A stretch of 64,000 nucleotides of DNA from Microthyrium microscopicum (lineage: Eukaryota), in assembly GCA_010405405.1 (NCBI GenBank), contig MU004233.1, positions 437,067 through 501,066 of the forward strand, given 5' to 3'. The notes below the pieces were generated by a model that was not told where the DNA came from, ran no database searches, and was given only the letters and a program-made list of their open reading frames with translations. The position numbers and the translations under genes were made by a program. How positions within the stretch are numbered: position 1 is the first letter of the stretch; each line of letters opens with the position of its first letter. Below are positions 1 to 47,027 of this stretch, piece by piece.

Positions 1-333
1 ATTTATCGAAAGCGATGGGAAATATAACACCTTTTAATTAGCAGCGTTCGTGGGAGCCATCGACGCTGATGGGAGAACGCCAGTTATTTGAGAGAAACGT
101 ACCAGAAATTTAGCCCAGATACTAAATTCATTTGACTGTGAGCGAGAATTGGAATGTGTATGATTCTTCTCCGTTACGGTATCAACCTTGGGGAGCACAA
201 TCTCCGGATGGCTGGACCCGTCAATTGATGCAAGTACGAGTGTCGGCCTTGACGGGTGAGATAGTACTGTTCCAAGCTGCAGCGGGCCATCGGAACTAAA
301 ACTGAAGTCTGGAGGTAGAAACCAAGTCGGCAT
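1..333 (-). CDS. Fungal gasdermin-like pore-forming protein (RCD-1/HET-Q1 family), 5' part only; runs off the left edge
   Basis: N-terminus MPTWFLPPDFSFSSDGPLQLGTVLSHPSRPT...LPKVDTVTEKNHTHSNSRSQSNEFSIWAKFL matches the WFLxPDF..G.LxLGxh..P pattern I recognise from fungal gasdermin N-termini. A GTACGT intron donor follows ...KFL (~102). The rest of the gene lies outside the window. Confidence 0.7.
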
Positions 334-1336
334 GATTATGCTTGCTGGAAAATGTAGATCAATTCAAAGAGCAAGCTGTAAGGTAAAAATCAGAGAGCAA
401 TATTAGTACGTGCTAGCGTTGGGCATGAGGTTACGCGGAAATGGCGCATTATTCTGCAGACGATATCGCTGGGCTGTAGCTGCATGCAAGCAAGCTATCA
501 AGATTAAAACTACCTGTTACTAGTAGCTCGAATTGAAGTTCAATTTTCTATTCCATAAAGCCCATAACTTTTGGGGAACAGTACCTTCTTTCCGACGTAC
601 TCACTATCTGAATTTATCTAACCTCGTTGTATCAGTCGAATTCGAATACGAATTTGAAGAGAGAGATTTTGAGTGATATATAATCCCGTCTTTTACAGAG
701 CGTGATGGGTATTTGTCCAGGTCGTGTCTGAACTTGAGTGAGACGAATAGACGTTACAAGATACTAGTAGATTCAAGTTATTGTAGAGCATCGTCACCTC
801 GCAACTAATAATCGATCGCACTCTTTACCTTGTCTTACTATTCCAAACGCGCGCTATGGCAACACTGGAGCGAACTTCGCTTCCCGATGCTCAACGGCAT
901 ATTTTTCGAAGGACATCCTATCTGCGCGCCAAGTTCAATTTGTAAATCGAAACAACGATGCAGCGAAGTGGTGAAGAACTTTTAACGACGTGCAGATGGC
1001 TGTGCCTCCTGTTGGAAGATTTCTTCTCGTGTATCTCGTGGTAACGAGTTTAGGAGATCAAGATCAAGCTGCGAAGATCACGGCTGTTCTGGAGAAGAAG
1101 ATGCTGCTTACCATAGCGTGGAGGGGGGAGTTATAGAAATCATCATATGATGATTTGGTACACAAATCTACAATTTCTTCCCCTTTGCCGATTAAAGTTA
1201 TGCAGACATTGTTGTTACGATGATGAAAGCATAATTGAGAAGAATAAAAACGATCATAACATGCTAAAGTTATTCGTTCTTGCCTAAGATTCCCCTATGA
1301 TCATTTGCAAAACTCCCCCTCGCGCGCTATTTATGG

Positions 1337-1451
1337 TAGGCAGCTGGACCGAACATGCTGGCCCAAGTCTATTTCGCAGATGCAGCCACAGCTGGTGCGA
1401 CTTCAGCATCAGGTTCTGAAGATCCAGTAGCATGTTCGGTCCAGCTGCCTA
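1337..1451. repeat. Perfect 23-bp inverted repeat with 69-bp spacer, overlapping the NLR stop codon
   Basis: TAGGCAGCTGGACCGAACATGCT (1337-1359) is the exact reverse complement of AGCATGTTCGGTCCAGCTGCCTA (1429-1451). Confidence 0.9.
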
Positions 1452-4397
1452 AGCCAAAGGAGTCTGATAAGCCGAACTTGCAGATGCTTGCATGAATTTA
1501 GTGCCAACAAGAATTCCTGGTGCGTGTTCAGCATTGGGATCTGAATATCCAATGCCAAAGGAGTCTGCCAAGCCGAATCTGCCATGTCTTTGTATGAAAT
1601 TAGTACCAACAACAATTCCGACCAAAGGTATGCTGTGTGAAGTAGTGAAGCATTTAATAAACAGAGATTTGGGACTGTGCCCAGTTAAAGGCAGTCCGAC
1701 TTCACCGGCTGGTGGAGATGTGTCCGAGTTTGAGTCCTTGAACCACCAGTCTGCTGCAACATCAATGATGGGCCACTCGAGGCTTTTCGCTAATGAGGGT
1801 GATATCCAATTATACCTGCTGCCAGAATCAAATCGGAGTTCTACAGGTATTATTTGGCCCGATTTTCGATTGATTGTTCTCATATCGGTGGTGAAAGTTG
1901 GTGTCGTGCTTCGAGGCCTTGGTGTCTCTCGAGCTGGTGGCAATTCTCGAGATATTGCGGTCTTTCCCTTGACAACATCTTTATGCAGCTTATTGACTGC
2001 GTTCATTGGAAAGCCCTGCAGATAGTGGTGAATCTCGCTGAGACTTTGTCCATCGATGATGAGATCCTCAACTTCTTGCAAGCCCAACTTGGCCAACAAG
2101 AAACTGCCTTCCGCACCATTGACTATGGTATCGACCATCATTTCCATCTGCGATCCGTCGAACTCATGAAGCGCGGATATTCGATCTTGAGCATACTTCG
2201 TAATGTCGTACCTGGTGCAGTCTTGCAGTCTTAAGTGTGGACAATCCCCCAAAATGTACGAAAGTCCAGGCCAGGATCGGCTCGAAACGCAAACTCGGAC
2301 TACAACGCTCCGTGCAACCTTCGGCGGAGTAGCTAGATCCTTAAGGAATTGAGCAATTTCTTCTGCTTCGTCAACTGCTTCGTCCAAAGCATCTACAAAG
2401 AGACAGACGCAAATATCCCTGAAAAGCAGGAGTATAGAATCTAGAATCTTTTTCAAAAGTTCTATCGACCACTTCGATGTCGGTTCATTCATGAATGTTA
2501 TGTGAAGCAAAGTATCGGAAGTATCGGCAAACCGAGGAACAGTCTCCAGAAGCTGGTAAATAAATGAAAGAAGCAAAGCCCTGAATGAATTGTTCGCATC
2601 GGAAATTTTGCTGTTGAAGAAGAATGAGTGTATCACAAGGAGACCATTCGTGAGTCCTCGCCGCGTGCGTGGATCATCGTAGAGGAACTTCATGAGTGTA
2701 GATTTGCCTGAACCCGCTTTTCCCTCAATCCAAAAGAGGCCGTCAACTCCATGAAGCCAGTTGGTGAAATGCGTTTCTGAATTGGTGAATACCCACTCGA
2801 AGGTTCCTTCATGCGCATTCTCGACGAAGCCAATGGCACCACTTACGTAATATAACACATGGCTTTCGAGTATCTTATGTTGAATCATTTCTAGTAGGAG
2901 TCAGTACTATGCCGATGGGTGGTCCATTATAGAAAACGAACCACGAGTAGGAGCTTCCTGGGGCTGGGAGGCTACAGTACTTTAGCTATTGTTGAACAGT
3001 TCAATGCGGACTACTCTACTTACTGCTTGTGTATGAAGCTGGTACGAGCTCAACTTCTTCATAGATGTATCTGGAAATCACACGCTCGACTTTCTGATAG
3101 TTGCTATCGTCCTCGCCTGTGAATTTGCACATGCCCAGATGATTGACGCTGTCGAGATATTCGTGTCCCGAGTATGCAGGAGCATATTCAGAGAAGCAAC
3201 CAGAAATATTGTCGACAACCTAAGGAATCAATAGTCAGCTTATCGTGAATGCAAGACTTTTGTATTCGCTAAGGCACTTTGTAGGTAAGTACCCAGGATC
3301 TACGCTCAGCTTGCAAATCACATTAGCATGTACACCCTCAAGCATTGGCGAGCAAGAAGTATGCACACTCCGCAGCGGGACCCCATAATTGTTCCATAGA
3401 GCAAATAGTCGGGCCTAAGAACGATGTATAGCCAGTTGATCACGAAGAAGCGCACAAGAAACGTCTAGGAGTGGTGTAAGAAGAGGAGACAACGACTAAC
3501 CAACTGTGAACGACTAGCATCAAGTTTGGATTTCTCTGTTTCCAAGAAGGAGTACGTTGGGAAGTCATTAGGTAGCATCTGATAGAAGTCCACACTCGCC
3601 CTTTTCAGGGACACCTCATCTGGATGTATTGAAGATGCGTCGGAGCTCATTCTGTTGAGAGCATTATCTCGGTACGTCGAGGTAGGCGTGTCTTCTGGTG
3701 TAAATGTTGTGGCAATGATGATGTCCTTCACTACCATGCCCAAGGTTTTGAATTCGTTCTCTCTATGAGGTGTACCAAAAAAGACAATACCTCGTGTCGA
3801 TTTGTGTATATCTCTGTGGAACTTGACGGAATTTTTAGCCTCGCATATGGCCTGAGAATACCGTCAGCACAGTTAGATGTGAAATCGGTTGAACCTACCT
3901 ACCTGCTTCAAAATGATACCCCCAAGGCTGTATGCAACAAATATGATAGGTCTTCTGGGACAGTCCAGTCTATAGCTGTATAATCTATCGAGAAGAATTT
4001 GTCCATGCCTAACAATATCTATGCGCTCGTGGTTGATGGGCCCCTTTGAGCCTCCAAACTGTCGTGAAAAAGTTGCGATACAGAAATCATGTCCATAACT
4101 TAATACTCGAACATGCGGAAAATCTCGAGCAAGCAAATCTTTCGGCCAGAAGATGGGGGCGTCGGTCGTCGAATTACGGCCTACCCAAGTATCGACTGGG
4201 TGGCCTTCTAGGCCGTGAATGAAAACAATGCTGCAATAAGTAACTCCAGTCAGCAGCGCTCGAATAAGTATGCTTTGGTCGGAGACGACTTGTAGCATCT
4301 AATGAGCATATCATTGGAGAAAGACTAACTCGGCTAGAGGGTCCACGCCCTGGGACAACACGGTGATTCCTTTACGCGATATATCAGATGGATCCAT
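1449..4397 (-). CDS. NLR-like STAND protein: SesB-like alpha/beta-hydrolase + NACHT NTPase + C-terminal retropepsin-like aspartic protease domain (spliced)
   Basis: Manual exon chain 4397-4330 / 4230-3903 / 3851-3501 / 3219-3024 / (possible 30-nt microexon) / 2890-1449 is in frame with GT-AG introns. Hydrolase motifs: DIVFIHGLEG, FWPKDLL, PIIFVAYSLGG, STRGIVFFGTPH, NHLGMCKF. NACHT motifs: FWIEGKAGSGKSTLMK (Walker A 2700-2723), CLFVDALDE, VCVSSR. Protease motifs: LRFDSGSRYNWISPSLA (DSG 1821-1829) and IVVGTNFI. Confidence 0.85.
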
Positions 4398-4861
4398 TAA
4401 TTTCCAGAGTGATTAGATCCAGAAAAGGCACTGGAGGTCAATAAGTACTGCTTAATCCACATCGATCGATTCTCTACCAATGGTGTGAGTGAGAGATCCT
4501 AAACGGGTAACAGGACTTGACGATTATTGAAGCGCAGGGAGTCAAAACGTAAGAATCGAGCTGTACTGCGTTCTTCGCAGAACTACTCCGAGGTAGCATT
4601 CACGACACGAGAGGATTAGAAAGTAGCAGCGAGTTCCGGGAGCCAAGCTGGAGTCTGAAAAGCTGAGGAGCCCAATATATGTGGCAGTGCAACAACAGCA
4701 CCAGCCACAGCTAGTCATACCTAAACCATGAGGTCCCATTCCCTAAGTTCAATCTACAACCACATAATTTCCCTACATGAGGCATCTTAGTAGAACTATC
4801 TGCGCAGTGCTAGATATAATGGAAACCGGAGAGGGTAAATCTTATAAAGTGTGGTGGTAGA

Positions 4862-4958
4862 CTATGACGGCGCATTACCGCCAACCCCGCTCAAGATAAG
4901 AACTTCTAAACTTCTAAACTTCTAAACACGTTACTATATTACTACATTAGCAACGTTA
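4862..4958 (+). repeat. Left terminal inverted repeat
   Basis: CTATGACGGCGCATTACCGCCAACCCCGCTCAAGATAAG(AACTTCTA)x3 AACACGTTACTATATTACTACATTAGCAACGTTA; reverse-complement match to 16119-16223. Confidence 0.95.
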
Positions 4959-5820
4959 CCCTATTACTATATTACTATATTACCCTTTAATCTCTAGAGC
5001 TCTAGGTTATAATTATAAATAATTATAATCCTACTTTACTACTTAGAAGTTATTATATTTATATTAAGATATATCTTTTTAATAAGTTAGTATAATTATA
5101 TATATATTATATAATAATTAGTAGGAAGTATAAAATATAAAGTATATAAATAATTACTAAATATAAGTTTATATTACTATCTAACGAATAGGTATATATA
5201 TATATATTTACCTAAACTAATTAAGTATTTATCTCTTTCTTAGAGTTATTCCTTATACTTTTTACTTTATTACCTTATCTATAATAAAATACTAGGCCTT
5301 ACTTCTATTAATTTAGAGTTCTATTAGGATAAAATTAAAAATCTTATTATAGAATAGTTTTTTACTTATCTAAAAATTATATATTAACTAAAAGAAAACT
5401 ATAATATTAATATTACGCTAAGTATACTACGTTAAAGAATTAAGTAATAGAAAATCTAATACTCTATAACTTTTCTATTAGAGCGCTATAAAAAGCTTAA
5501 AAAAATAATAAAATTCTTATTCTATAATAAGAATAATAATAAAGATAAAATACTCTTTACTCTTTAAACTATAAGATATTTAATAACTATATAAATTCTT
5601 TAGCATTATTAGTAAAAGCTTAATCTTAAACGTTACTATAAGTTTACGTTAAATAAAGATTTTATAATAGCTTACTACTAAGATAAAGTAATAGTTCTAG
5701 CTAAGCTTTATAAGACTTATTTATTAGTATTATTATATAGCTATTAAGCTCTAGCTACTAGACTTTATAAATATAGATACCTAATTCTAAAGGCCTAAAT
5801 TAATTAAATTTAATAAGATT

Positions 5821-6514
5821 TAGATCCTATTAATATATAAGCTTATTAAAAACAAAAATATTAAAAACGTAGTAAATATAAAACTAAAAGCTTAAACTAT
5901 ATCTAGTTAATTAATAAGTATAATAAACTTAAAAAAGTAAAAATTAAAATTTATAGCTATATTAATGCTTACTTATAAAATATAATCTAGTATTATATTA
6001 GTATATTAAATACTATAAGTATAAATTATTTATATTAGTACTTAGATTAGTTAACTATTAATCTTATAATCTCTTAGTTTATCTACTTAAATTAAAGAGG
6101 CAAAACTATAATACTTACTAATACTTATTATAAGTTTATAAAGACTCTAGAGTATAGAATTTCTTTCTTAAATTATTATCTATATAGAACTAGTATTATA
6201 AATTAGAGAATTAAGCACTAATAAGGAAGCCTTAATAAATTAATATTAACTAAATAGTAAGTAAGTTATATAACTACGTATACTTAAGAATTAGTACTAA
6301 TATAATAACCTACTAGATATTCTTTAATAAGCTAATTAATAAAAGTTCTTATTTAAAAGATAAACTTAAAGACTAAATTATAATACTAGTTATTTACTTT
6401 CTTATTCTATAGCGCGTAATAAAGAAATTTATTAATAACTAAAATAATTATAAGATTATTAATAATAAGAAAAAGTAACTATATATAGTAAATAATAAAC
6501 CTTAGTATCTATAT
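5821..6514 (+). pseudogene. RIP-inactivated integrase-core (IS3-like DDE) transposase, core region
   Basis: The frame starting at 5889 reads SLNYI*LINKYNKLKKVKIKIYSYINAYL*NII*YYIS...FIYLN*RGKT...NYYLYRTSIIN*RIKH**GSL. Reverting C>T/G>A changes gives GPNYIWSIDGHDKL..GIEIYGCIDAYSRNIIW...FIRSDRGGET...DCYLYGTS..NQRIE.WW. After a GTAAG intron (6261) it reads FV..WN.H.I....RP....G.P..LY. Confidence 0.8.
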
Positions 6515-8279
6515 ACTCTTTCCTAAAGAGTATAAGATATAAGCCTAGTTATTAATCTAGTAATACTTTAGGCTAAGAAAGTAGTAGTAGAAAACTAAAA
6601 TAAGGATACTTTTTTACTACCTAATATACTTTAATAGTATAATAAAAAGCTAGATATAATAAAATTTAATCCTAATAATAACCTCTTTAAAATAAAAGAG
6701 AATTAGCGTAACTTAATAAACTTATATCTTAGTTACTATCTTTACTTATAAAGAATAATTAATTGCTATATAGTATTAGGTAATACCCTAATTTTAGCTA
6801 TTCTTAAAAATCCTTAAGGTAGTAAAGCTTAGATTAGAGATTACTTAAATTACTCTATAGTTTAGAAGATATAGAGAGCTATAAATAAGGATAATAAAAA
6901 TGATAATATTATAGAGTTTTAAGCTACTATAGAACGTATAGGACTTAACTATCTTAATAATAATTAATTAAAGAATAATTCTAATATTAATTTAGCTAAA
7001 GAAGAGGAAATTTAAGCTAATAATATAAAAAGTAAAGGTAATATAGAAAAAAAGCTTTAGTTTATATTTAAGTATTCTAATTAATAATAATAATTTATAA
7101 TAATTTTATATACCTTAACTACTTTTTAAAACCTTACTATACTAGTAAAGCTTAATACTATAAAATATATTATTAGATAAATAGCATATTTTCTTTATAT
7201 TAAGTAGTTAAAGATTTCTAAATCTCTTAAGTCTTTTAAATCTCTTAAATCTCTTAAGTCTCTTAAAAAAGATAATATAGATATTACTTAAATTTTTAGT
7301 TTCTTTCTTTATTCTTAATAGCATTAATAATAGAGTAAGGGCCTATAGTAGCATTAGGCTTAGTACTCTTAGGTACTTATTCTATTATTATAAATAGCGT
7401 ATAAATTAATTATAATTAAGTAACTAAAATATAATACTTAAAGTGTTAGACGCTTATAGATATATCTTTTAAAAGAGTTATTCTTATGCTTTTAGTTATA
7501 TCTACTAACCTATAAGAGCCTAGGTAAAGATAGATAAAAGATAACCTAAGGCCTTATATATTATTACTACTAATACTATATATAATTAAAAACCTAAATA
7601 ATATAATTAAGGTTTCTAACTCTAAAATGCTACTATAACTATAGTAATATATTAAATAAGAGCTTCTTCTTATTAAAATAAAGAAATATAACGATATCCT
7701 ATTATAAAATCTAAGTAATAAAAGAACTCTAGATAATTCTATTAAGGTATAATATAATTAAAAAAGCTACTAGAACTATGTAGAATATAAATTAATAAAT
7801 GCTATAGTAAAGCTAAATCCTATTATATAAAAGATTTAATAAGGCATATTAATAATTCCTAAAAAAAAAGATATAAGATTCTATTAAGATATAAGTATAA
7901 AAACTTACCCTAGTTTAGTTCCTAAAATAACTTTAGTATAAATAAAATAAAAAGTAGAGATCTATTCTTATATTATTAACTATAAGACGTAGAGTAACTA
8001 TATATAATTTAACTTTATTAAAGAATATTATAAGTAGCCTAGTTATTAAGATAGCTTATACTAATGTATATAATAGCTTTAGTAAATATAAACCTTTTTT
8101 AAGGTAACGTTAAAGGTATTTAGGACTTTATTTATAAATACTTAGCTCCTTATTTAAACGATATAGTACTTACTAACTATAATAAAGTCTTTACCTATAA
8201 TAAGGGTATCTAAAACGTTAAACTTATTAATAAAATTAAACTAGGTAAAAGACCTATAAGTTGCGTATTCTTAAAGAAT

Positions 8280-9170
8280 AAGAAGGGTAAAGCTTTAAGC
8301 CTTTCTTTAAAGTAAGGAAAGCCTCCTAAGATTAGCCTTATTAGTAAAATATATAATATTATTAAGCTAGCTAGTATTACTATAAATAAGTTTATTAAAA
8401 GAGCTACCTTTAACATTAATAAGAAGGGTTAACTATAAATCTACTTAATTATATATAAGTATTAAGAAATTATTCTAGACTCTAATTCTAATATATTTAC
8501 CTTATTAGCGCTTATCCTAAAGACTTTAAAGGTACTTATCTTAAAGACTCTAAAAATACGCTAATAGCTACCTTTAGAATAAACTTCTTTAAAACTTAGG
8601 TTAAGTAAAGCTATTAAAGCTAATCTAGGTACTTAAGTAAAGCTTAAGAAAGTTAAGCTTAATATAGACGTTCTTAAGAAGATAAAAGCTACTATACTAA
8701 AAGCTAAGTAAATTATAAAGGACCTATAAATAGCAAAAGATCTAATAAAAAATAAAAGTAGATAAGGCCCTAAGTCTACTATAGATAATAAAGATAATAG
8801 CCCTAGTAATAAGAAAAAAGCTATAGCTAGTAGTAAAGATAATAATTCTAATACTTTATTATTATTACTAAGGACGTTATTCTAATAATTAAGAGAGAAG
8901 AAAGCTACTAAAGAAAAGAAAGAAGCTACCGCTACTAAGTAAAAAAAGAAAACTACTAAATAAGATATATAAAAGTAGGCTATATCCTAGGTTAAGCTAT
9001 TAAAGAATAGTATATCTACTTATACTTTCTAATTTTATAAGGTAGTACTTACTTTAGCGAATGAATAAGTAGCTATAGCTATTAAAGTAGATACTCTTAA
9101 GGCGGCTAAAGCTAACGTAGTAATAAAGAAGTATAAAGGGCGTAAAAGAAAGGATATAAAATATAAATAT
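8280..9170 (+). pseudogene. RIP-degraded Lys/Glu/Ala-rich (coiled-coil-like) ORF relic inside the element
   Basis: Long stretches of codon-like phase (AAG/GCT/CCT), e.g. KKATKEKKEATATK*KKKTTK*DI*K*A and AIAIKVDTLKAAKANVVIKKYKGRKRK. Stops are TAA/TAG, consistent with RIPped CAA/CAG. Confidence 0.4.
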
Positions 9171-12100
9171 AAAAATAAGAAGTAAGGTAGCGCTACTTAG
9201 TTATATTAAAAAGCTATTTAGATATCTTTACTTATTTAATACTTATTATAGTTTTATTATACTTATTCTACTCTTTTCCCTAATTCCTAAATAATTAAGG
9301 TAGCGTTAACTTACTAATAATTACTTAGTAAATACTTTCTTTATAAACTTAGTAGGAGTTCTATATATAATAGATATAATGCTATCTTAATTTAATAAAA
9401 AGGCTAGTAAAATCTATAACTACTACTAGCCTATTATTTCTAACTCTATTATTAGAGTTACTAACCTAGAAAAAATATATTAAATGCCTAGCTAAAAAGT
9501 AAAAAGTAGGCATAGAGAACTTACTAAGGTTCTTTTCTAATAGTAATACTATAACTAGGATTAAGCTATATTTAGTAAGTAGATCCTACGCTAGGCCTAT
9601 TAAACTATAAGCTACTTATAACTTAACTAAACTTTAATAAACTCTAGTTTCTTAAAATAATTATTCCTTAAAGTTAACTAAGTAATCTTTTATTAAATCT
9701 TAAATATTACGCCCTTTATATATAAACTTTAAACTTAAATAGGACTAAATCTTAGAAAGAGCTAATACCCTTCCTAAAATAAGACTAACTAATCTAATAA
9801 TATATTCTTATATAAATACTATACGTATACTATAAAAGAATAAGTAACTAGCTTATTAAACTATTATACTCCTTCTTTATTCTACTAAATTAATACCCTT
9901 ATAATACTTAAGTAGTTTATTAACTTATAAATTAAACCTAAATAAACGTTAATAAATATAATAATTAATATAATTTATTAAGTAGAAGTTATAAAACGTA
10001 GTATAGAAAACTACTATATAAAGATAAAATAGTTAAGAAATAAGCTTAAAGAATTTATATAATATTACTATAAATACTATTAGAACTAAAACTACTAACT
10101 AAAAATTAAATTAATTAAAAGTAGTACTAAACTATAAATCTAGAAACTAAGGAAGTTATTAATTAAGTATTAATATATTTCTATAAAAAATTAATTATAT
10201 TTCTATTTAATACTATTAGCTACTTACTAGGATATATAATAATAGTTATTAAGCTCTAACTCTAATTCTAATAGACTTTCTTAAGCTACTAGTTTATAGA
10301 AGAGTTATAGTTTTATTTAAGATAGATATAATATTAGTTAATAGGAAATAACTTAAAAAGAGTTAATAAAATTAATTATTAGGCCGCTAGGTACTTAAAA
10401 GTAAAAATAGTAGGCTCTTTAATATTTAGACTATATCCTTCTAAGACTCTTTAATTAAGAGTAACTCTATTATTTCCCTTATACGTAATATAGTTATCTA
10501 TATTCTTATTATTAAATTTATAATAGCGCTCTAATTACCTCTTACTATTATACTTATAAAGAAGGTAGCCTTTATTAAAGTTAACTTTCTAAACTAATTA
10601 CTTATTCTCTCTTTATTCTATCTTTATTTTATTTATCTCTTTTAAAGCTTTTAAAAATATATTAATTTTTTTAGCGTTATTTAAAATATAAATAAGCTAG
10701 CAATACTCTCTTTATTTAGTACTATCTATCTAAATAAAGCTTACCTTAGCCTTACTTATACTTTTAAGAATTCTTCTTACTTACCTACATAATCTCTATA
10801 GTCTACCTTAAAAGTATATTAATAATATTAATACGCCCTTACCTTTTAAAAGATTTAAGTTACTAAACTTAACTAATAAGCCTATTATATTACTATTATA
10901 ATCTATATATATCTTTATCTCTTCTACTTTTAAATATACCCTAAAAATATCTAACTTCTCTTTACTATCTATATAGCACTAAAGGTCCTTATAAAAGGGC
11001 GCTAGGTAAAATTCTTTAATTTAATATTATATTATATTAATTTATATCTAATTATTAGTATTAAGGACTTAATTAAATCTATAACTCTTAAAGTAAATAT
11101 TATTAAGATAATATACAAAACGAAATAAAGCTTATAAATCCCTAGCTACCTCCTAATAAACTAAAAAAGTAGCTAGGAATATATAAGCTTTATTTATTTT
11201 AAAAACTTTTTAACTAAATACTTCTATATTAGAATATTTTATAAAATAGTAACTTTAACTATAAAGTAAAATCTAAAGAAAGTTATATCTATATTAACTT
11301 ATAATTTTAATCTATCCTTTATCCTAAATAATATACTACTAAAAAGTATATTATACTAAAAGAGGGTTAAATTTAACTTATATATACTACTCCTAGTATT
11401 TTTAAGTCTTTATCTTTTAATATTAGACCTTAACTACTCCTTAGGTAAATTAAGAAAATAATTAGGGTCTAATATAGCTCTAGAGGAGCTAATACCTACC
11501 TAAATTAGAATTTTTATTAGTCTAATATTAAGTTAATATTCTTTTTAATAGTAAAAGGAAGTAAATAAATTCTTACCTATTAATTATCTCGTTGCTAATA
11601 TATATTTCTTCTACGTAAAGTACTACCTTAATTAATAATATAGTAGGTAGGAATCTAGTACTTTATTAATATATATATAATAAAGTCCTTAATAAAGATA
11701 TACTATTACGTTAGATATAATTATCTTTCTAAAAAGAAGTACTATTAGCTATACTCTAATTAATACTTATAATATATACTTAAGTTTATAATTAGCTTTA
11801 ACTTATTAACATAATACTATCTCTATAAATAAAAGACTTTCTAAAAAGATAAAAGAACTAAATATATAATAAGTACTTAGGGTAGGTAAAGTAATATACT
11901 TACTTTACTATCCTAGGCGTAGTAATAATAAATAAAAGTAAATATATTAAAAAATAACTATTAAAATAAATAAGAATACTAAAAGTAATCTCTACTATCT
12001 TAAAGTAAATTAGTAAATAATAAAATAAATTTAGGACTTACTTAAAGTATATATTATAGACTTAAATCTAATAAAGGATAGCCTATAATATGCTTTTTAT

Positions 12101-15100
12101 ATTTTTATTTTTATTAGTTATAATATATAAAATATAAGCCTACTATTCTATACCTCTAGATATCTTAAATAAATCCTTAGTTTATTCTTAAAGTTATTAA
12201 TTATTACTAAGTAATAAGGTAAATAAATGCGTAAGCCTTATAAGTTAAAAGTTTAATTACTTAGATTTTATAATATCCTTTTATAAATAAGCGTAATAAC
12301 TAGTTAGTAACTACTATAGCTAGTAATATATTTTTAGATATTAGCTAACTCTAAGCTACTTTTTTACTACTTAATCATCTAGCATTTAGATATATATTAT
12401 AGTTACTACTTTTACCTACTAAGGACTAATACTTTTTAACTTAAGAAGAATGCTACTTAAATAAAAATATTTAGAAATAGTTAACTAGCTTGCCTCTATA
12501 TATTAATAAACTAATAATAATATTTATTAATATCTATTTATATTATTTAGTATATATTAATAAAAAGCATATCTTTACCTTTCTTATAATATACTACTAA
12601 TTATATACTAAATAATAAAGTTTCTCTATTTTTTTAGAAGCTTTTATATCTACGTTCTTTTAATAATAATATTTACTACTTTAGATTAATAATATATACT
12701 AAGATTTCTATCTAAGGAAAAATTAGGTATATCTAAAATATAACTACTAGCTAATAAATAATATAGTTAAATTACCTTAATAAAGCTACCTAGAATCCTT
12801 ACCTAATAAACTTAACCTTCTTAAAAAAGATATATACTTTATACTAAAGTAAAAAGTATAACCTTTATTATATATTAAGGCTAACGTATTAGATATACCT
12901 ATTAATACTAGATTAAGGTAGAATTACTTTTTATAAATAAGAATACTCTTAATAAAATTAAGAGCTTATGATTTATATAAATTAATAATTCTATAACCTA
13001 CTTATACTATTTATATTATTCCTAATATAGTACTTATGCTTCCTAAGGATATAAGGTAGCGTATAGAATTATCTCTATATATAATAATAATAAGGCTATA
13101 ATAATATTAGAAAGTCTTTAGAGAGCCTAGTTTAAATAAAAATTATAGTAGAAAATTATAATAATTAGCTTTAGTTTTTAGGCTTTACCTTCTTCCTAAT
13201 TACTAACTTGCTAGTATTTAGTTTAGATAATATTTAAATAATATACTAATTTTTAACTAACTTTCCTCTATATTATAAAATATAAGCTTCTTTAATATAT
13301 AGAATAACCTAATTACTATACCTTAGACTAGAGTATAACTACTACGTAAGTATAATAAATTATATAGAACTATAGCCTTAAGAAAGTATTATTAGTAAAA
13401 TAGGTAAAAAAAGAATAAGATTAGACTTAAAAAGTATACTAGAATTACTCTATTATAACTAATAAGCTTATCTATAAGATAAAATCTCTAAATAAAGAAG
13501 TAATTAGTTATTATTAATAAGCCTACTATAGATAATAGTCTATAATAGGTTATAACTAATAAAGGGTAGTAATATTATTTATATCCTATATATAGTATCT
13601 CTAGGTAGTAAGTAGTTATAACATTTAGCATAACTAAAATACTAATTAATTAATAGTTAAAAACTACCTATATTACTATAAATTAACCTAGCGTAATATA
13701 ATATATTAATATAGAACGTATTAACGTTAAAGACGTTAAGACTTTTTTTTAAAAGAAAAAAATTAATATAAAAAATATCTTACTATTTTAATCTTCTCTA
13801 GAAAACGTATTAGAAAAGGGTAACTAATAAAGTATAATAAGACATCTCTAATAATAAATACTAAAGTATAAATAGTTATAAAGATTATTATAATATTATT
13901 ACCTTAAAAAAGTCTTAATATTAATTAAGATCTATTAAGATACTTTTATAGCAATTTTACTAAGTATTAGTATAAATATACTACTTAATAAACTTTATTA
14001 TAGAAAGCTCTACTTACCTAAGTAATATATAGTATTAAATAATACTACTTAGCAATAGAAAGGCTTTATAGCTATCCTAGCTAGTTAATATCTATATATC
14101 TAGAAAACTAAACTAAGTTATAGAAATAAGTTAGACTAGTAATCTCTATTAGTTTTAGCTACCTTAAAGCTAAGTAATTATTAAATAGTACTTTAAAAAG
14201 TAACTATAAGTTATTCTTTTTATTTTACTAAAATAAATATATATAATAAGTAAAATAATATCTTAATCCCTTATATAATAAATAAAATAATATCTTAATT
14301 CCTTATATAAGGCATTTCTTTATAAAGGGTAGATACCTTAATATATTCTAATAAGTTATCTATAAAGCGCGTACTATAAGTAAAATACTAAGTATTTTAC
14401 TATAAAGTATCTTACTATATATATTCTCTTAAGTAGTCCCTAGGAAAGAATAATATAGTAGACTTTATAATTAATTTTACGTATATAAAAGTATACTATA
14501 TTAGAGAGTATAGAATTAGAAGTAGAGAGAGCCTTTTAGCTAAGAAGGCTTACTCTATAATAGTAGGACGTTATTTCTAAAATAATACTTACTACTAAAT
14601 TATTATAGTAAAACTACGTAGGTATAAAACTACTATATAGTATAAGCTTAAATAATTACTATAAATTCTATATAATTTTAAGTTATATAAAATTTTTTAG
14701 ATAATTATAAATAATATTTTTTTCTTCTTCTATAAAATAGCTAAAAAAAAATTATTCTCCTACTAACCTAGCTCTTAATATAGCTATAGAAAAACTTAGT
14801 AAGACTTAAGTATATATACTACTTACTATATAAACTAGCTTAATACTACTTAGATATAATAGCTAGATTAGAGTTATAGTCTCCCTCTTACTTAATACTA
14901 AAAAATCTTACTTTACTAAACCTTCTCTACTATAATTCTATTACCTAATTATATTAATTATACTTAATTTAATAAGGAAAAATAAACTTATATATAATTT
15001 AGCCTTATAAGATTATTATATAGTAGTACTAACTATCCTAGCGCTAATCTTATACTATTTTCTTACTTTTTTTATATTCTTATAAGTATAATATTTTATA

Positions 15101-16118
15101 ATAGTAAGCTAGCCCCTTAGATATTTAAGTATAGATATATTTTATAAGATAATTAGTATTTATAAAGAATATTTATACCTCTAGCGTTAGTAGTTCTACT
15201 AATTAGTAAGCTAAATAGTATATATAATAGTTTAGTACACAAGCTAAAGAATATAGGCCTACTAGAACGTAACTTTACCTTATATAATATAAATAGAGAA
15301 GTTTAAAATACTCTATATTAACGTCTTAAAGCTTGCGTAATTATATTAAAAGCTAGAAATTACTTTTAGGGATATAAATTAGTAGTAGAGAAGCATTAGA
15401 AGACGTTATAGCTAAAAGAATAGAAGTTTTTAGTAATTTAGACTTACTAAAAGTTAGTAAAGTAGTTATAAGTAAAAAGAATAATATACTAGAATAATAT
15501 TATTTAGTAAGGGATTATGCCCTTCTTACTATTAAGATATAATACCTAACCTAAAGGAATAATATATAAAGGAATAACTTAAGAACTTACGAAAAAGATA
15601 ATACTCTAAAAAAAACATTATAGCTAAGGCTTACTTATAAGCTAATTTAGTAAGGAACTACTACTACTAAGCTTTACTAAACTTTACTATAGTTATAAAT
15701 CTATAACCTTGCTTTTATTCTTCTAAGGAAGGAGCCCTATAGTGCTTACTCTAATTAAAACCCTTACGTAGTATTATTTTATTTATTAAAACTATTTTAG
15801 AAAAGATATTATAAGTATAATTCTTCTAAAGAATATTCTCTTATTAAATTTAGTAAGCTTCTCTATGAACTAATATCTTTATTTATAATATATTCCTATA
15901 ACTATACTAAAATCTATATATAGCCTACTAGACTCTTCTATATAAGCTATAGTATTATATAAAGGCACTACTTTACTAAATATTAATAACCCTATTATAA
16001 ATAAAAATAATTTCTACTACTAAAATATAAAAAATAATTATTACTAAAAATACTATTTAAAGATAACCCTAATTAAGGGCAGGGCAGAATAAATATTAGA
16101 ATTATTATTAATAGAGGC

Positions 16119-16481: not shown

Positions 16482-17560
16482 ATGGGCGAAGGCGACTCAC
16501 TTTACGCAAAGGCTGAAGCCAAGCTCAAGAGCGCGACCCGTGGCTTTTCCTTTTTCACAGACAAGCCAACTATCTACGACGAGGCCGCTGAGCTCTTCAA
16601 GGACGCTGGTCAGTAGCGTAGATGATCCGATAAACCCACTCGATATGCTAATATTCCTAGCCGCAAGATACTACGCAGATGACCAACTCCAACAATCCGG
16701 CAAGGCCTACGAACGATCAGCCAATATCCGTCTAACGAACCTCAACGATGAGCTTGAAGCCGCCGCCATGCTTGAAAAAGCCCATACCTCTTACCTATCA
16801 GTCGATCGTGCCAAGGCTATCTCCATTTCCGAGCAAGTCATCCAACTACAGACCAACAAAGGGCGCTTTGACCGCGCGGCCAAGACACATGAGGATTTAG
16901 GCGGCTTATATGCGACATCGAACAATCCACAAGACAAAGCCAAGGCCATAGAAAATTTAGAGAAGTCTATCAAGTACTACACCGATGCCAAGCGGCCGGC
17001 AAGCGCGAACAAGAATCGTCAGTTGGCGGCGCAAGTAGCCGCAGAGCTGGGTGACTACTACAAGGCAATCGATCTCCTGATGATAGGAGCGGAGACAACC
17101 GCAGCGGCACCCAATGGACGGTTTTTGGTGAAGACGTATTTGTTCAAAGTTGGTGGTAAGATTATTATACTCTGCTACGACTGGAACACTATGCTAATTC
17201 ACGACAGTTTGTTCTCTAGCGACTGGCGTATGACTTCTCACTCGCGAGCAGAGACTATAAGCTGACGATTTCTAGGATATCGTAGGTATAAAGAAAGTTC
17301 TCGATAACTGCGGACGGATAGACCCTGGGTTCTATCAAGAGCGCGAAGGTCGCTTTATCATAGACCAAATGGAGGCTTTGGAACAGCAAGATTCCGACCG
17401 AATCAAGGCAAACACAGCAGCTTGGGGTAAGATCAAGATCCTCAACCCCTCCTCGCGTCAACTGACATCGATAGTTCCGGCCCCAGAACCATGGATGAGG
17501 CAGCTTTTGGACACGGTGGTAGTGAATCATGCGACGGCTCCAGAGGAAGACTTTTCATAG
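16482..17560 (+). CDS. SEC17: Alpha-SNAP (Sec17-like vesicle fusion protein), spliced, divergent
   Basis: MGEGDSLYAKAEAKLKSATRGFSFF, KGRFDRAAK, LGDYYKAI, KTYLFKVGVCSLATGD, C-terminal EEDFS; four GT-AG introns. Confidence 0.8.
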
Positions 17561-17707: not shown

Positions 17708-20286
17708 TCAAACATCCAACTGCATCATAGCATCCTCATCCCCAACATCCATCTCAAACTCATCATCCTCCTCCAAATATCTCTGCCGCTGCCGTTCCTT
17801 CTGCGCCTGTAACTCCGCCTGCTCCTGCAACTCCATAATCTCCGCCTCCTGCTGTTCCGCCTGATGTTTCTTGAGATCCTTCATATCCCACACACTAACG
17901 CCCTCCTGCAACTTGAGCGCATACGGCTTACTCATATCTCTCAAAAAGGCTTTCGCTACCGCCACTGCTTGATCCACGCTGAGATTTATATCTGCTTCGG
18001 GGAGGGCTTGCGCGATCCATTTGGGCAACTGGTTGCGTTTCTTGGTAAATCGTTTGTCGGCCATGAGCATGATGCCGTAGTCTTCCTTGCCGCGTAATAC
18101 ACGGCCTAGACACTGTGCTGCGTGCCGCATGGCGTCGAAGGACAGAAAGTCTTGGTCGCGGATATGATATGTTTCGCGCATGAAGCGCAGACGGGCTTTG
18201 AGGATTCGCGACTCGGTGTATTGAAAGGGTACGCCGATACATAGAACCGTGCGGCCATATTGGTGGTCGAAATCGACACCTTCACTGACTTTTCCACGTG
18301 CGACGGAAAGGAGGACTGCGCCGCGGCCATTGTTGCAGGCGGTGCGGTATGTTTCGAGTGCGAGGGAGGTTTCTTGGGAATCGGGGGTTTCGACGAGGAT
18401 GAGCTTGTATTTCCAGATGGCGTCTAGGATGCCGGAGCCTTGCCAGTTGGAGATTGTGGATTCCATGTAGAGGTAGGAGGGGAAGAAGACTACGATGCCG
18501 TCGGGGGTGAGTTTGCAGAATTCGGTGAGGAGGGCGCCGTAGTTGCGGACGACGTCGGGATCACTGCGCTTTTCGAAGCCGGAGGTTATTACTTTTTGGT
18601 CGGAACCTTTGGAGACGATCAGTGGGAGGAAGGATTTGCGGGCGAGGGACATGGTGTAGGATTCGGTGATGAGGGCGCTGAAACCGAGCATGCGTGGGTA
18701 CATTTCGAGGGGAGAGATGGTTCCGGACGTGATGATTACGGAGCTGAAGCGGTCAAAGACGGGTTTTATTGCGATGGCGGCGTCAAGGCAGGCGAAGTGG
18801 GTTCGGGGGTTGGCCATCAAGGCACCTTCGACTTCGTAAGGTTCGAAAATTAGTTCGAAGCCTGTATCATAGGTTGCTACTAAAGTGGCGAATGTTGCTA
18901 TATCTTGGAGAGCTCTATAGTCTTCGATATTGGTAAGCTCTAGTGTACGTACGAGAGACGTGAGACGCTCCGCACAGAATCGTAGTGGTTTTCGCTCAAT
19001 GAACGTTAGCTCTTTGAGATGTGTGAGAAAGGATGGAGGAGTTTCGGCAAAAGAGTGAAGAACTTTCTGCCGAGTCTTCATGTATTCAATGAACCGTTTG
19101 AGAAAGGCAATGAAGTGTTCCGCTCGCCGTATATTGCCTGGTACAGCCTCTTGAAGTAGATCATCTGGTAATGTTGGATTTGACATGAAGGCATCTTCGT
19201 CTCGAGCCTCGTCGGCTCCTCGTAGCCCCTCGACGAGCTTATCATACTCGTCTTGCAGTTTTTGAGCGTCTGTCTCTTTGAGTCGAGTAATTTCTGTCTC
19301 TAGATTATCTGCTCCTTTTGAAGCTTTGCGTAACGAATCCGCAGTGATATCTATGCTGAGCGACTCTATACACACGTTGTCGATGTTATGTGCTTCGTCA
19401 AACACTACAATGCAATCCTTGGACAGTTCTTTCGATACTCGTTCAGCAATCTTCGGGTCTAAAAGATAGTGATATGAGTATATTATGACGTTGCAGAACG
19501 GCATCTGAGAAGTTAGTGTCGAGTCTGAAATGAGAGTGGGCAATGTACCATTCGTCGAGCAGTGAAATAGGGACATTGCTTTTGTTCTTCCGAGTATCTC
19601 GTGAGGTCGTCAAATGTCCAAACACCGGGCGGTATAAGGTTATGTGGTTCCAGCTTATCCAAATTCTTCAAACGGTTAGCGGAGAGCAGTACGCAGACAA
19701 ATACTAGTGAATACCTCGTGATATTCGCATAGCTCAACATCGTCACCACGTTCTTTTCGCTCTTTGACGAATCCAGCCGTCAAGCTTCGACATCTCGCAT
19801 CAACCACATTGCCATCCTTCTCGCGCCGTACAGAAGGATGCAGACACAAGTTCTTTCTGCTCGTTAAACCAAGCCCTCGGAACTCTTCTTGATACCCCAA
19901 TTGCTCCGTCCGATAGTGCATGAGGGATCTCAACTCGGCCAGGGCCTTTTCGATTTCGGACATGGTACCTATCCTGGTCAGGTCTTGATAGAATCAAGTA
20001 TGTAGCATTCCACACGCACGTGAGCAGTAGATCAACTGGCGCTTCTCCGGTTGGGCTTGCTGATACGCGACAATCAACGAAAGAAGAGAGATGGTTTTTC
20101 CAGTTCCAGACGGCATTTCCAGGACGCAATGACCGCCGCGGTCAATGGTCTTCTTGAGATCTGACATGTAGGCATATTGCTCGGGATAGATGCGCGGGTA
20201 CGGGAAAAGCACCTCGAGCTCACTATGTAATATTTAGAGATGACCTCATGATAGGCTCAGTTAACTGACTCAATATGGAACCTCAT
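17708..20286 (-). CDS. RAD3: TFIIH DNA helicase XPD/Rad3 (spliced)
   Basis: [91 protein letters not shown]. Confidence 0.97.
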
Positions 20287-20939: not shown

Positions 20940-23900
20940 ATGGTTTTTCCAAAGACCAATGCTAAGAGTAGTCATGCTGCTGCTGCTGGATCATCCTTTG
21001 GCGGTTTCGGTGGAGCATTCACAGCAGCCTCATCACCACTGTCCTACTTGGCCATCGTACCCGATATTTCACGAATTCAAGATCCAAACATAGTGGTGAT
21101 CTTCAAAAACCTCATCAAAAAGGACTCCATTACCAAGGCACGCGCTCTAGACGAATTGCACAAGCTCTTGACGGCAGAAAAACCTCCTAATATCGATGAA
21201 GCATTCCTGGACGTCTGGCTTGGATTGTTTCCTCGAACTTCTATCGAGGCTGACCGAAAGGTTCGATTACTGGCACATACTGTTCAGGGTCAAATAGCAG
21301 CCGCAGTAGGCACGAAGCTCGCAAAGCACATGAAGTCGTTGATTGGAGTTTGGCTACTGGGCCTGTACGACAATGACAAACAAGTGGCAAGTACTGCAAA
21401 GTCAGCTCTATCCTTGGTCTTCACAACACCGGATAAACGGCAACAACTTCGAAAGGTGTACCAGGATTCTATATTGGATCTTTGCCTTACTATCATTCAA
21501 ACAGAAACCCCGCAGACGTTGAGTGATGAAAAGACGACGAGCTCAGAAGAGTCCGAAGCGAAATATGCTCGCGTACTTGCTGCTGTTCTAGGTCTTCTTC
21601 CGGATGTCTTCAGAGCTGGTGATGCCAGCTTGAGATCCAAATGCATTTCGAAATATGAGGAGTTGCTTGGAGATAAGCAATTGTGGGCTCTAGCATCCGC
21701 GGATGATGCTTCAGTTCGCAGGGGAGCACATCGATTGTTAAGATCCACTTTGGATTATCTCGATCTAAAGCCAATGCTAGATACAAAGTCCCTCAGCTCT
21801 GCGTACCTGGAAAAGTCATTGGCATCCAACCAGACCGGGTCTGCTTCTGATTTCCTTGACACGATTACTGCTATTACTTCAGTCTATCCCACCATTTGGA
21901 CAGATGATTGGAAGGGTAAGAAGAGCCCAAGCTCGAGACTACGAAGTTTCCTTCGTAGTGGTACACAAGGATCGCAAGCAACATACTGGTCGAAGATCAC
22001 GGCTCTTCTGCAAGCTATTCCATCTTTGGCGTTTCCAACGTCTGTTGAGGACGTCGAGGCTTTGCTTGAGGCTTATCGCAAAGGCATCACGAAAAAAGAC
22101 GAACCTAAATCTTATCTACTACCGGGAGTGAATGGGCTATTACAAGCAATTCCCATCATTGCTAGCCAGTTGTCCCATGAAGACCACACTCTTGTGTTTG
22201 CCAGATATGTTTTGCCCTTAGCGCAATCATATCTACTACCGTCCCCAGAGTCACAATGGAGTCTTCCAGCAACAAGATCCACCGAAACTGTGGAAAAGAT
22301 GCTGCAGATTCCAGGGATGGCAAATATCTTGGCTGGTGAATGGACACAGATTACCGAGCAAGTGCTCGAGATGATGAAGCTATCTCTTCCTGAGCAATCG
22401 AAAGACTACAAAACCTCTCAAGATCGGATATCAGAGCTAGGCCAACGCTGGACCAATATCTCGGGATTCCTGTCAAAGTCGGCAGACGATAAAGCTTTAA
22501 TTCAAGCTTGCGTCAAGAAATATTTCTCTACCACTCTTGATCTGGTGAAAACACGACAGGGGAAGCCATATGGAGTAGCCGTCGCAATGGTGCACGTACT
22601 GCAATTAGAGACCTTGAAGGACAGTACGGAAATTTCAGACCTTTTGGACCACTTTTTGTTAAATGTCATGCCCGAGATATTTTTGTCCCCTTCCATCTCA
22701 TCCTTTGGACAGCTCCTTACCTTGTCCAAAGGTAATGATGTATTCGAAGAAAGCTGGAAATCGTGCCTTAAAACAACTTTTGCCGCAAGCGATCCCGCCA
22801 AACAACTCAACGGCTTCACCGAGCTGATGAAAACAGCACGAGGATCATCTCTGCAGGACAAGCTCTTGAGCTTGCCAGAAGTACACAAGTTCATTCAATC
22901 CCAACTTCAACATTCGCTTCAGAGTGATGCTAATTGGGATTTCCTTGCCGCAATTACGGCGCAGATCCAAGCAGAAGACCTTCAAATGGATATCCTTGGA
23001 ACAATGACATCCTCCTTGTCAATCTCTAATGAATCAACAAACCACGCTCTCCATGGATTCGAAATTCTGGGGCAACGAGACCCTGCGACACTGAAATCGT
23101 TCGCAGATACTACTGCCGGACAAGCTATGATGTCGTCTGTTCTTCGACTGACTGAAGACCATGATGAGACCATCTCAGAATCCGCCTCCAAGGTAAACTT
23201 AATAATTCATGGCCTTTCCGCAAGTCTTCCAAGTCAGCTGGCAGGGACGAAAACTCATACTCTCACCGAGGTCATTAAGGACGGGGTGGTAGAAGCGTCA
23301 ACGAAATCTGTATCAGTTCACACATTGGCTGCACAAGCAACTGCAATGATATCCGCCAAAGATCCTGCTACCATTCAGTCACTTCTACCGGATTTGGCTA
23401 TTTGGGAGAAAGAGTTGCAGAAGTTCTTAGCAGCACCTCCAGCGCTAGCTTTGAGAATAACACATTCGTCGGCAGGAGTTCTCCTCGTAGAACCATCTAC
23501 CTCTGTCACCCTTCAAGAAACGGATATTCCGCGAGATGTGGAAGGCCTTTCTATTCCACTTCGCATTGCCATGTATATCACAGAAATCATCAAAACTGCG
23601 GAGGACTTGGCAAATATACCTTCTGAGCTCGCCTCAAGGCTACTTCAACTTCTCACTGCGACCCGAATGCTAGCCAATGATAAATTGGGTTTTCTTGGAT
23701 GCAACAACATTTGGTCCTCCCAGAATGCGAGTCTGGAGGAAGACATTATTGATTTTGTGTCTAATAGCCAATTACTAATCTCTGGATGTATCGCTCAGTC
23801 TGGAGAGGGGTGGTCGGACGATGAGCCCTCTAGCAAATACTCTTTTGTTGGCGATGCTGCCAACCAGCTTTTTCAAAAGGCACAAGGCCTTTCCTCATCT

Positions 23901-35370: not shown

Positions 35371-35992
35371 ATTCACAAAGCGACTTTAGATTATTGCATA
35401 GAATGGATGCTTACGACGCTTCCAACATAGAGATACCCATCAATCAAATGAAAACCGAACATCTACAGTAATTTTTGAATGAATGTGGTACACGATAAAG
35501 TTAGCAGCTTAGAGGCGCCTGATTGAGCATCAGGAAACGAAATCGATCTGAACATTTCATCTGGCATTATTTGTCCGACAGCTCAGACATCAAAACACCA
35601 ATGTTTTACTTGAAGTCTGGAATATTTTTGGGAAGAATTGCTCAACCAAATCTGTGAAGTACACTTTTTTCGGTTGGTCCAAATGTGCATTTTTTTTTCG
35701 ATTTGGTCCTGAAAATCATTTGGCCAAAACAACCTTGACAGCTTTAGGTCAACTTCACCGACAACTTCGCCGAACTTCACCGATGCTGCAACTCCTTCAT
35801 CCTTCATCCAAACTATCAACTTTTGATTACCAGAACACATGTTTCGAACTCGCTCTCCATACATTCAACACTCAGTGGATCACATTTTCGAAGTCCAATC
35901 GCCGCGTCTGCACCCGCTACAGATATCACTGCTCGAGAAGCGAATGCCAAAATTGAAGCCAACTCTTAAGTCCAGGTTCCGTTCATCGAGTG

Positions 35993-46706: not shown

Positions 46707-47027
46707 TTTGGGTCAATATCTATCCCATCAGAAGACGTCATCAGTATTTTGGCCATTCAAGATCTGGGTGATGGAGTTGGTAGAGATTTTGAGGAGCTTC
46801 GGGGAAGAGCCGAGCTTCGAGTTCGGGTCCGAACCGAACTAGCTACTGCATTGGCCGTGGCCAGCATTTTCGAAAGAAGTTGCCCAATACACAGTACTGG
46901 TATAGATGGCAAGATAAAAAATGTGAGGAGTTAGCACTGAAGATTCTGGTATTTAAACTCAACTTTCCCCATAGAAAATGGTCAAACATATCTCCTCGAC
47001 ATACTTACCTTGTCCCATACACCAAAC

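Follow-up and report, generated by a model that had tools for sequence, protein, structure and literature searches.

A predicted gasdermin gene beside an NLR-like gene with a C-terminal retropepsin-type fold in Microthyrium microscopicum

Two co-oriented genes at the left edge of the window

The DNA analysed here is a stretch of 64,000 nucleotides from contig MU004233.1 of the dothideomycete fungus Microthyrium microscopicum (GenBank assembly GCA_010405405.1, positions 437,067 to 501,066 of the forward strand; hereafter the window, to which all coordinates refer). At its left edge, two genes lie next to each other on the minus strand. The first, of which the window holds exon 1, encodes a small protein that we identify below as a gasdermin, and the second encodes a NOD-like receptor (NLR)-like protein in which an alpha/beta-hydrolase region, a NACHT-type P-loop NTPase domain and, at the C-terminus, a domain of predicted retropepsin fold follow one another. 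The start codon of the gasdermin gene (ATG, 333-331) sits 1,115 nt downstream of the stop codon of the NLR-like gene (TAG, 1451-1449), and both genes are read in the same direction. The spacer between them (334..1448), which was inspected by eye and by tblastn with the long gasdermin relative described below, showed no protease open reading frame (ORF) and no relic of a repeat domain among its stop-to-stop ORFs, these having been viewed by eye only. The domain identifications at this locus are far beyond chance. The adjacency of the gasdermin and NLR genes is likewise a fact, yet taken by itself it does not show that the two are functionally connected.

Exon 1 of the small gene (103..333, minus strand) codes for 77 residues that are 100% identical to residues 1-77 of BT63DRAFT_423112, a 284-residue protein of M. 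microscopicum (here P0001). It is followed by the initial part of intron 1 (1..102), whose GTACGT donor was read from the sequence at 102-97 and which extends past the left edge. According to tblastn of P0001, residues 1-77 alone are encoded in the window and the remaining 207 of the 284 residues lie left of it. A gene model with a short first intron (acceptor at 31, exon 2 'VLYFPSLSIN') was rejected, as the annotated protein continues differently, outside the window.

The gasdermin assignment comes from profile and structure comparisons. A Pfam scan of P0001 returned no match, and a single-sequence search of the same protein against PDB sequences gave nothing useful. Exon 1 retrieves 32 relatives, 31 of them measuring 257-313 residues and one being long (P0032, 1,198 residues); none of the 32 carries a NACHT domain or an aspartic protease. 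When a profile of 31 family members was compared with PDB sequences, the best match was rcd-1-1 (8jyz_A; 124 positions, E 0.0015). P0001 was also modelled with AlphaFold2 from the family alignment (mean predicted local distance difference test score [pLDDT] 72.1, predicted template modelling score 0.66); the model shows extended, pore-like hairpins, and in a Foldseek search of this model against the PDB ranks 1-9 are all gasdermins, headed by the RCD-1 pore 8jyz_A (E 3.5e-10) and with further matches to Trichoplax, bacterial, GSDMA3, GSDMD and GSDME pores. Judged from this predicted structure, the product of the small gene is a gasdermin of the HET-Q1/RCD-1 type. RCD-1 of Neurospora crassa (PDB 8jyz, 8jyy) is both its best structural and its best sequence-profile match, although the identity amounts to 12-16% and the acidic extension at the C-terminus is longer in the P0001 family. 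In RCD-1 itself, activation comes about when two allelic forms heteromerise, not through cleavage.

Behind the last core strand of the P0001 model lies a low-confidence linker (residues 216-237) that contains the tripeptide E-L-F at residues 221-223, after which some 61 residues follow. This motif is well kept in the family: E-L-F is found in 26 of the 31 members, E-M-F in three and E-A-F in one, the last member having a gap. In the sections of Clavé et al. (2022; PMC8851545) drawn on here and below, HET-Q1 is described as being cleaved after F238, with both L237A and F238A preventing cleavage. P0001 resembles HET-Q1 in its length (about 280 residues) and in the possession of a short, putatively inhibitory C-terminal peptide, and the conserved Leu-Phe of its linker resembles L237-F238. 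The P0001 family would thus bear the HET-Q1-type Leu-Phe signature at the equivalent place, where it forms a putative cleavage site. Differently from HET-Q1, whose peptide has about 40 residues, the peptide of P0001 is predicted to comprise about 61 residues if the protein is cut after F223 (Clavé et al., 2022).

The NLR-like gene and its C-terminal domain

The larger gene (1449..4397, minus strand) was delimited by exact-match mapping, onto the window, of the M. microscopicum protein BT63DRAFT_468603 (804 residues; here P0033), to which its product is 100% identical. Its six exons lie approximately at 4397-4330, 4230-3903, 3851-3497, 3219-3024, 2970-2943 and 2891-1449 and are bounded by consensus splice sites. 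Two peculiarities of the predicted gene model may be mentioned: a mini-exon of nine codons (2943-2970, residues 316-324) between the hydrolase and NACHT parts, and an intron between exons 3 and 4 that is unusually long, at about 280 nt.

The central P-loop NTPase domain (2181..2807, residues 353-561) is identified by a strong NPHP3_N match (E 1.2e-24, 87.8 bits against a cut-off of 24.8). The NACHT model itself also matches (E 8e-6), with 26.2 bits for the whole protein, which is just under the cut-off of 26.7, and with 27.5 bits for the last exon alone. Both a Walker A motif (GKAGSGKST, 2723-2697) and a Walker B motif (LFVDALDE) can be read directly from the sequence. The N-terminal region (3024..4397, approximately residues 1-315) appears as an alpha/beta-hydrolase through Pfam matches that all stay below threshold, namely Cutinase (E 5.4e-5, 23.6 bits, cut-off 25.9), DUF676 (E 0.006, 16.5 bits) and Abhydrolase_6 (E 0.015), and it contains a candidate nucleophile elbow, AYSLGG, again read from the sequence. 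Pfam has no SesB model, and we take this hydrolase to be SesB-like. The protein terminates 243 residues past the NACHT match, and no ANK, WD40, TPR or LRR repeats were detected in it with Pfam at E <= 0.1. Neither an S8 nor a CHAT domain was seen in the Pfam scan, so that P0033 falls outside the HET-Q2-like proteases, and a single-sequence search of P0033 against PDB sequences gave nothing useful.

In the part of their survey used here, Dyrka et al. (2014; PMC4986451) name sesB-like as one of the four most frequent N-terminal domains annotated in fungal NLRs and report that about half of the C-termini of these proteins are without Pfam annotation. P0033 resembles the SesB-like/NACHT/repeat NLRs of that work in having an alpha/beta-hydrolase followed by NACHT, but differs from them in being repeat-free and in ending with a domain of retropepsin fold. 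A second point of comparison is provided by the S8/NACHT/WD40 and CHAT-containing NLR-like proteins (Clavé et al., 2022), with which P0033 shares the joining of a protease with NACHT beside a gasdermin gene. However, the protease-type domain of P0033 is an aspartic one of clan AA and not a serine S8 or cysteine CHAT protease, it is placed at the C-terminus of a protein whose N-terminus carries another enzymatic domain, and repeats are absent.

The C-terminal domain of P0033 comprises residues 661-762 (1578..1883, minus strand) and was defined by its relatives, by structure prediction and by Foldseek. Pfam gives for it Asp_protease_2 only, well below threshold (E 0.03-0.07, 14-16 bits, cut-off 24.3). 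An exhaustive phmmer scan with the last 160 residues of P0033 against 1.84 billion representatives (E <= 0.001) yielded 22 matches, which are P0033 itself, 20 relatives and one evidently spurious protein of 2,939 residues with Calx-beta and fibronectin domains. All 20 relatives (P0034-P0053, our alignment A2; E 2.8e-11 to 2.8e-4) are small, stand-alone proteins of 110-319 residues without reverse transcriptase, integrase or ubiquitin-like domains, and 14 of them show sub-threshold matches to gag-asp_proteas or Asp_protease_2 over nearly the full model, the cut-off being reached by none of the 20. The sequence ED(T/S)G followed by NWIS is present in each of the 19 relatives that cover this column, one more being truncated there. 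The counterpart in P0033 reads FDSG...NWIS; its D-S-G (residues 679-681, 1829-1821) contains the catalytic-type Asp679 at 1829-1827, and a helix motif of the form h-h-G-x-x-F is common to P0033 and the relatives. The longer relatives also possess an N-terminal C-x-C-H...G-C-x-x-D-H motif, and the family has a conserved tail past the protease core; both are missing from the P0033 domain, and P0033 has an insertion of five residues after the last helix motif. Going by this alignment, the C-terminal domain of P0033 is a fragment of a member of the small retropepsin-like family.

Structure prediction agrees with this assignment. The AlphaFold2 model of the domain has a mean pLDDT of 75.6, with values above 85 across most of model residues 21-110, and its tail (residues 126-153) is disordered (pLDDT < 50). 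The C-terminal strand of retropepsins serves dimerisation, and at the position of this strand the model has a short helix followed by disorder. Among the PDB matches listed by Foldseek, almost all are of retropepsin type (probability 0.98-1.0); the RVP domain of Ddi1 is the best (E 2.4e-4), and the ApRick, RSV, HTLV, EIAV and HIV proteases also appear. A structure search of BFVD returned viral and phage aspartic proteases, and the look-alikes found in a language-model atlas all carry clan AA families. The profile of alignment A2, when compared with PDB sequences, gave non-significant matches only (ApRick, E 0.49). On the predicted model, the C-terminal domain of P0033 has the retropepsin fold. 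It resembles Ddi1 and the retroviral and retrotransposon retropepsins (family A2 and its relatives) with target-normalised template modelling scores of 0.53-0.67 over 105-115 aligned columns, and has a D-S/T-G in the expected loop together with the h-h-G-x-x-F/L helix motif; it differs from them in that the identity is 11-16% and that no Pfam cut-off is reached by the domain or by any of its 20 relatives. An origin by insertion of a long terminal repeat retrotransposon was rejected, the relatives being small and without reverse transcriptase or integrase, and the structure matches favouring retroelement proteases no more than those of Ddi1 or phages.

The first-pass annotation of this stretch had described a gasdermin-like gene start about 1.1 kb downstream of, and co-oriented with, a SesB-hydrolase/NACHT gene that ends in a retropepsin-like domain with a DSG motif. 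Each element of this description holds: the spacing and orientation by the coordinates given above, the gasdermin fold by the RCD-1 matches of the full small protein in both profile and structure searches, the NACHT part by the NPHP3_N match and the hydrolase, here labelled SesB-like, by sub-threshold matches, and the retropepsin-like domain by structure prediction and Foldseek.

The 3' end of the NLR gene is rearranged (1453..1601, minus strand), as seen by repeat search, local alignment and three-frame translation. About 48 nt at 1554-1601 recur at 1453-1499 with two indels of 1 nt; the local alignment of the two copies reaches a score of 42, where 300 shuffles gave 25 at most, and the last 20 or so codons of the gene are a frame-shifted copy of the duplicated stretch. 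Immediately downstream, a perfect inverted repeat of 23 nt (1337..1451; arms at 1337-1359 and 1429-1451, 100% complementary) encloses 69 nt, and its upstream arm provides the TAG stop codon of the NLR gene. The 23-nt sequence has only two matches window-wide, where none is expected, and the enclosed 69 nt resemble the upstream 3' coding sequence of the NLR gene itself. A reading of this structure as a miniature inverted-repeat transposable element was rejected on account of the lack of any further copy in the window and the gene-derived nature of the enclosed sequence; the inverted repeat more likely arose by local duplication and inversion than from a mobile element.

On its other side, the NLR gene borders on degraded DNA. 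An AT-rich block of 11.5 kb (4500-16000; GC 0.21), which starts about 100 nt upstream of the gene, carries a strong signature of repeat-induced point mutation (RIP), with a TpA/ApT ratio of 1.63 and a (CpA+TpG)/(ApC+GpT) ratio of 0.12, as against ratios of 0.7 and 1.3 in its flanks. The first 4,400 nt of the window (1-4400) have a normal base composition and no RIP signature (TpA/ApT 0.72, (CpA+TpG)/(ApC+GpT) 1.28). The block parts the gasdermin/NLR corner from the housekeeping genes of the window.

Which protease activates the gasdermin

Clavé et al. (2022) catalogued 1,884 het-Q1 homologues and, with a clustering criterion of 10 kb, reported an S8 gene within this distance for 63% of them, a CHAT gene for 19% and neither for 20%; the partner protease differs by clade, being S8 or CHAT, with occasional re-association. 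Their Dataset S1 holds a single row for M. microscopicum (CBS 115976), in which the het-Q1 homologue KAF2670813.1 is paired with the het-Q2-like KAF2670812.1, classified as Peptidase_S8. According to their Dataset S2, KAF2670812.1 consists of a 604-residue unannotated N-terminus, the S8 domain and 33 C-terminal residues, and Dataset S3 gives the gasdermin count of this genome as one. Given the species, this count and a likeness, seen by eye, between KAF2670812.1 and P0032, P0001 should be KAF2670813.1.

P0032, the long gasdermin relative from a Chaetothyriales species, offers a second line of evidence. It is a single gene model that joins DUF7580, Peptidase_S8 and a P0001-like gasdermin, and was probably produced when the gene caller joined two neighbouring genes of the same orientation, so that in this species an S8 gene and a gasdermin gene stand in tandem, in this order. 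Both the N- and C-terminal flanks of its S8 domain resemble those of KAF2670812.1, again by eye. When P0032 was used as a stand-in query for the S8 partner in tblastn, neither S8 nor DUF7580 was found in the 64-kb window, where only the gasdermin part of P0032 matches. With no S8 gene in the window and the partner expected within 10 kb, the S8 gene therefore has to lie left of the window, and the partner protease is most likely a subtilisin (S8) gene just outside it on that side. The locus resembles the het-Q1/het-Q2 pair of Clavé et al. (2022) in that the protease catalogued as its partner is of the S8 type and is extended by a long stretch at the N-terminus and, indeed, in that the M. microscopicum cluster is itself a row of Dataset S1; the difference is that only exon 1 of the gasdermin gene falls within the window.

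We regard it as probable that a known gasdermin/S8 pair here has for its neighbour a chimeric NLR that is lineage-specific and unrelated to it. At its left edge, the window would then contain one side of a cell-death pair of the canonical fungal het-Q1/het-Q2-like kind, in which the gasdermin would be held inactive by its C-terminal peptide of about 60 residues until the DUF7580-subtilisin (S8) neighbour, the most likely activator, cuts after Leu222-Phe223 and the freed N-terminal gasdermin domain forms membrane pores. Such S8 cleavage is most likely by analogy, considering the family membership, the Leu-Phe motif and the published catalogue. The NLR would be a separate receptor with a SesB-type hydrolase as effector and NACHT as switch, its usual repeat sensor having given way to a fragment captured from a stand-alone gene for a small retropepsin-like protein; it would constitute a lineage-specific and possibly decaying chimera in an accessory region at the edge of RIP-degraded DNA, and we infer that it acts independently of the gasdermin.

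Several points weigh against this interpretation. The equation of P0001 with KAF2670813.1 is inferential, being drawn from the species, the one-gasdermin count and the by-eye likeness. The NLR ORF is intact across six exons and keeps its Walker A motif, hydrolase elbow and D-S-G, which speaks against simple decay, and the NLR gene lies directly upstream of the gasdermin gene in the same orientation. Retropepsins favour hydrophobic residues at P1 and P1', and given this preference the L-F site is also compatible with cleavage by a retropepsin. Finally, the naming of S8 as partner in M. microscopicum goes back to one dataset row (Clavé et al., 2022), in which a neighbour of retropepsin type may be unrecorded.

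The first-pass annotation had gone on to propose that the retropepsin domain of the NLR may be the protease that activates the gasdermin. That the locus belongs to a gasdermin/protease cell-death module stands. The role given to the NLR retropepsin is disfavoured rather than disproved by the S8 partner catalogued for the M. microscopicum gasdermin (Clavé et al., 2022), by the absence of S8 from the window and by the S8 fusion of P0032. Nor can the pairing be a conserved one, since no other protein was found to have the NACHT+retropepsin architecture; a canonical S8/CHAT neighbour and a lack of conservation are two of the objections that the annotation had itself foreseen. A word-seeded C-terminal search among proteins of 263-839 residues and a profile search restricted to lengths of 560-2,000 residues returned, from 348 candidates and from 8,000 scored candidates, respectively, one protein each, in both cases the query itself. 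As far as these searches reach, the fusion is a singleton, P0033 alone.

Among the other explanations, the one that survives best overlaps with the interpretation favoured above and holds that the NLR is a non-functional chimera, in which a truncated SesB-NACHT gene happens to run on into a captured retropepsin-like fragment and the annotated ORF would serve no selected function. It can call on the singleton status of the fusion, on the absence of C-terminal repeats (by Pfam, and by eye of any relic downstream), on the loss from the domain of both the N-terminal Cys/His motif and the C-terminal tail of the family, on the frame-shifted duplication and the stop codon provided by an inverted repeat, and on the 11.5-kb RIP-degraded block that starts about 100 nt upstream. 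Nevertheless, a frame of 804 codons in six exons with consensus splice sites, with catalytic and P-loop motifs intact, and a normal base composition without RIP signature in the gene itself (TpA/ApT 0.72) speak against a dead gene, and we consider outright loss of function unlikely.

Conversely, the retropepsin-fold domain could be a working part of the NLR, which we hold to be improbable, whether as a bait integrated at the sensor position or as a second protease activated by oligomerisation. As a bait, the domain may be paired with, or cut by, either the protease of an active retroelement or one of the small stand-alone retropepsin-like proteins, whereby the SesB effector would be set off; such an arrangement would be similar to the decoys integrated in plant NLRs. 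As a second protease, an oligomerisation-activated retropepsin may feed into the adjacent S8/gasdermin pair.

Still less credit is due to a cascade of three genes, in which the NLR would be the sensor at the head of the pathway and its retropepsin or SesB domain would process or license the DUF7580-S8 protease, for instance by taking off the long N-terminal region, and this protease would in turn cut the gasdermin. To our knowledge such a cascade has no precedent. Filamentous fungi possess many NLR genes, and for this reason their adjacency to a gasdermin gene is weak evidence when taken alone; moreover, conservation of the cascade cannot be shown because the architecture of the NLR is unique. 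On the other side of the balance, the NLR, gasdermin and S8 genes would be contiguous, the S8 partner has its 604-residue unannotated N-terminus (Dataset S2), long extra regions occur in 93% of HET-Q2-like proteins, and 88 three-gene clusters are on record, although each of these holds two het-Q2-like genes (Clavé et al., 2022).

The least probable explanation, and a very doubtful one, is the induced-proximity model that the first-pass annotation had in mind, an aspartic-protease analogue of the inflammasome in which oligomerisation of the NLR would pair its retropepsin domains into active dimers that cut off the C-terminal peptide of the gasdermin. In the solved wheels of NLRs, apoptosomes and resistosomes, the N-terminal domains gather at the hub. 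The model can point to what looks, in the predicted structure, like a genuine retropepsin fold with D-S-G, to the intact NACHT domain, to the co-oriented adjacency of the two genes at 1,115 nt and to the differing, occasionally re-associated partner proteases of different clades, but against it stand the catalogued canonical S8 partner and the tie of this gasdermin family to S8 through P0032, the singleton nature of the NACHT+retropepsin fusion, the placement of the protease at the C-terminal, sensor end (in S8/NACHT/WD40, the protease-NLR architecture named by Clavé et al., 2022, protease and repeats occupy opposite ends), and the features predicted for the domain itself, namely the five-residue insertion, the missing conserved tail and a helix followed by disorder in place of the dimer strand.

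Genomic setting and significance

Beyond the RIP block, the window (16540-64000) contains ordinary housekeeping and metabolic genes, as assigned with Pfam. These include SNAP (16540-17265), an XPD/Rad3-type helicase (17708-19576), the listerin/LTN1 E3 ligase (20940-25888), an ABC ATPase (30817-31980), two Zn2Cys6 transcription factors (35990-37039 and 44953-45735), an isochorismatase (47010-47738), a carboxylesterase (51223-52257), and proteins with DUF2985 (53353-54759) and DUF4246 (62018-63985). The 13 large ORFs scanned in this part showed no additional domain of NLR, protease or cell-death type.

Gasdermin/S8 pairs have been described before, and Dataset S1 of Clavé et al. (2022) already lists the present cluster, so that the gasdermin part adds nothing new. 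For the NLR, the literature search found no paper combining 'retropepsin' and 'NACHT'. Wojciechowski et al. (2022) use none of the terms 'aspartyl', 'aspartic', 'retrovir' or 'RVP' in their main text (of the domain lists in their supplement, a part at most was covered by the search), and the portion of their supplements that was covered names neither Microthyrium nor neighbouring KAF accessions. In the main text of a 2025 survey of Sordariales NLRs, 'aspartic' is used only for the Walker B residue, and 'aspart' is absent from the main text of Dyrka et al. (2014). An NLR ending in a retropepsin fold thus appears to be undescribed in the literature searched. As far as sequence comparison can tell, the domain stems from a rare family whose members are small, bear the ED(T/S)G...NWIS signature and are represented by 20 clusters among 1.84 billion representatives.

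Function should not be read from adjacency at the edge of a window, and what the fusion means depends on whether it works. If the domain does work within the NLR, be it as a bait or as a second protease, it would mark the first description of an aspartic-protease module in an NLR, and a functional fusion would widen the range of protease classes wired to these receptors. If it is instead a one-off chimera, which we hold to be more likely, it would offer an example of how fungal NLR domains are shuffled beside RIP-degraded DNA.

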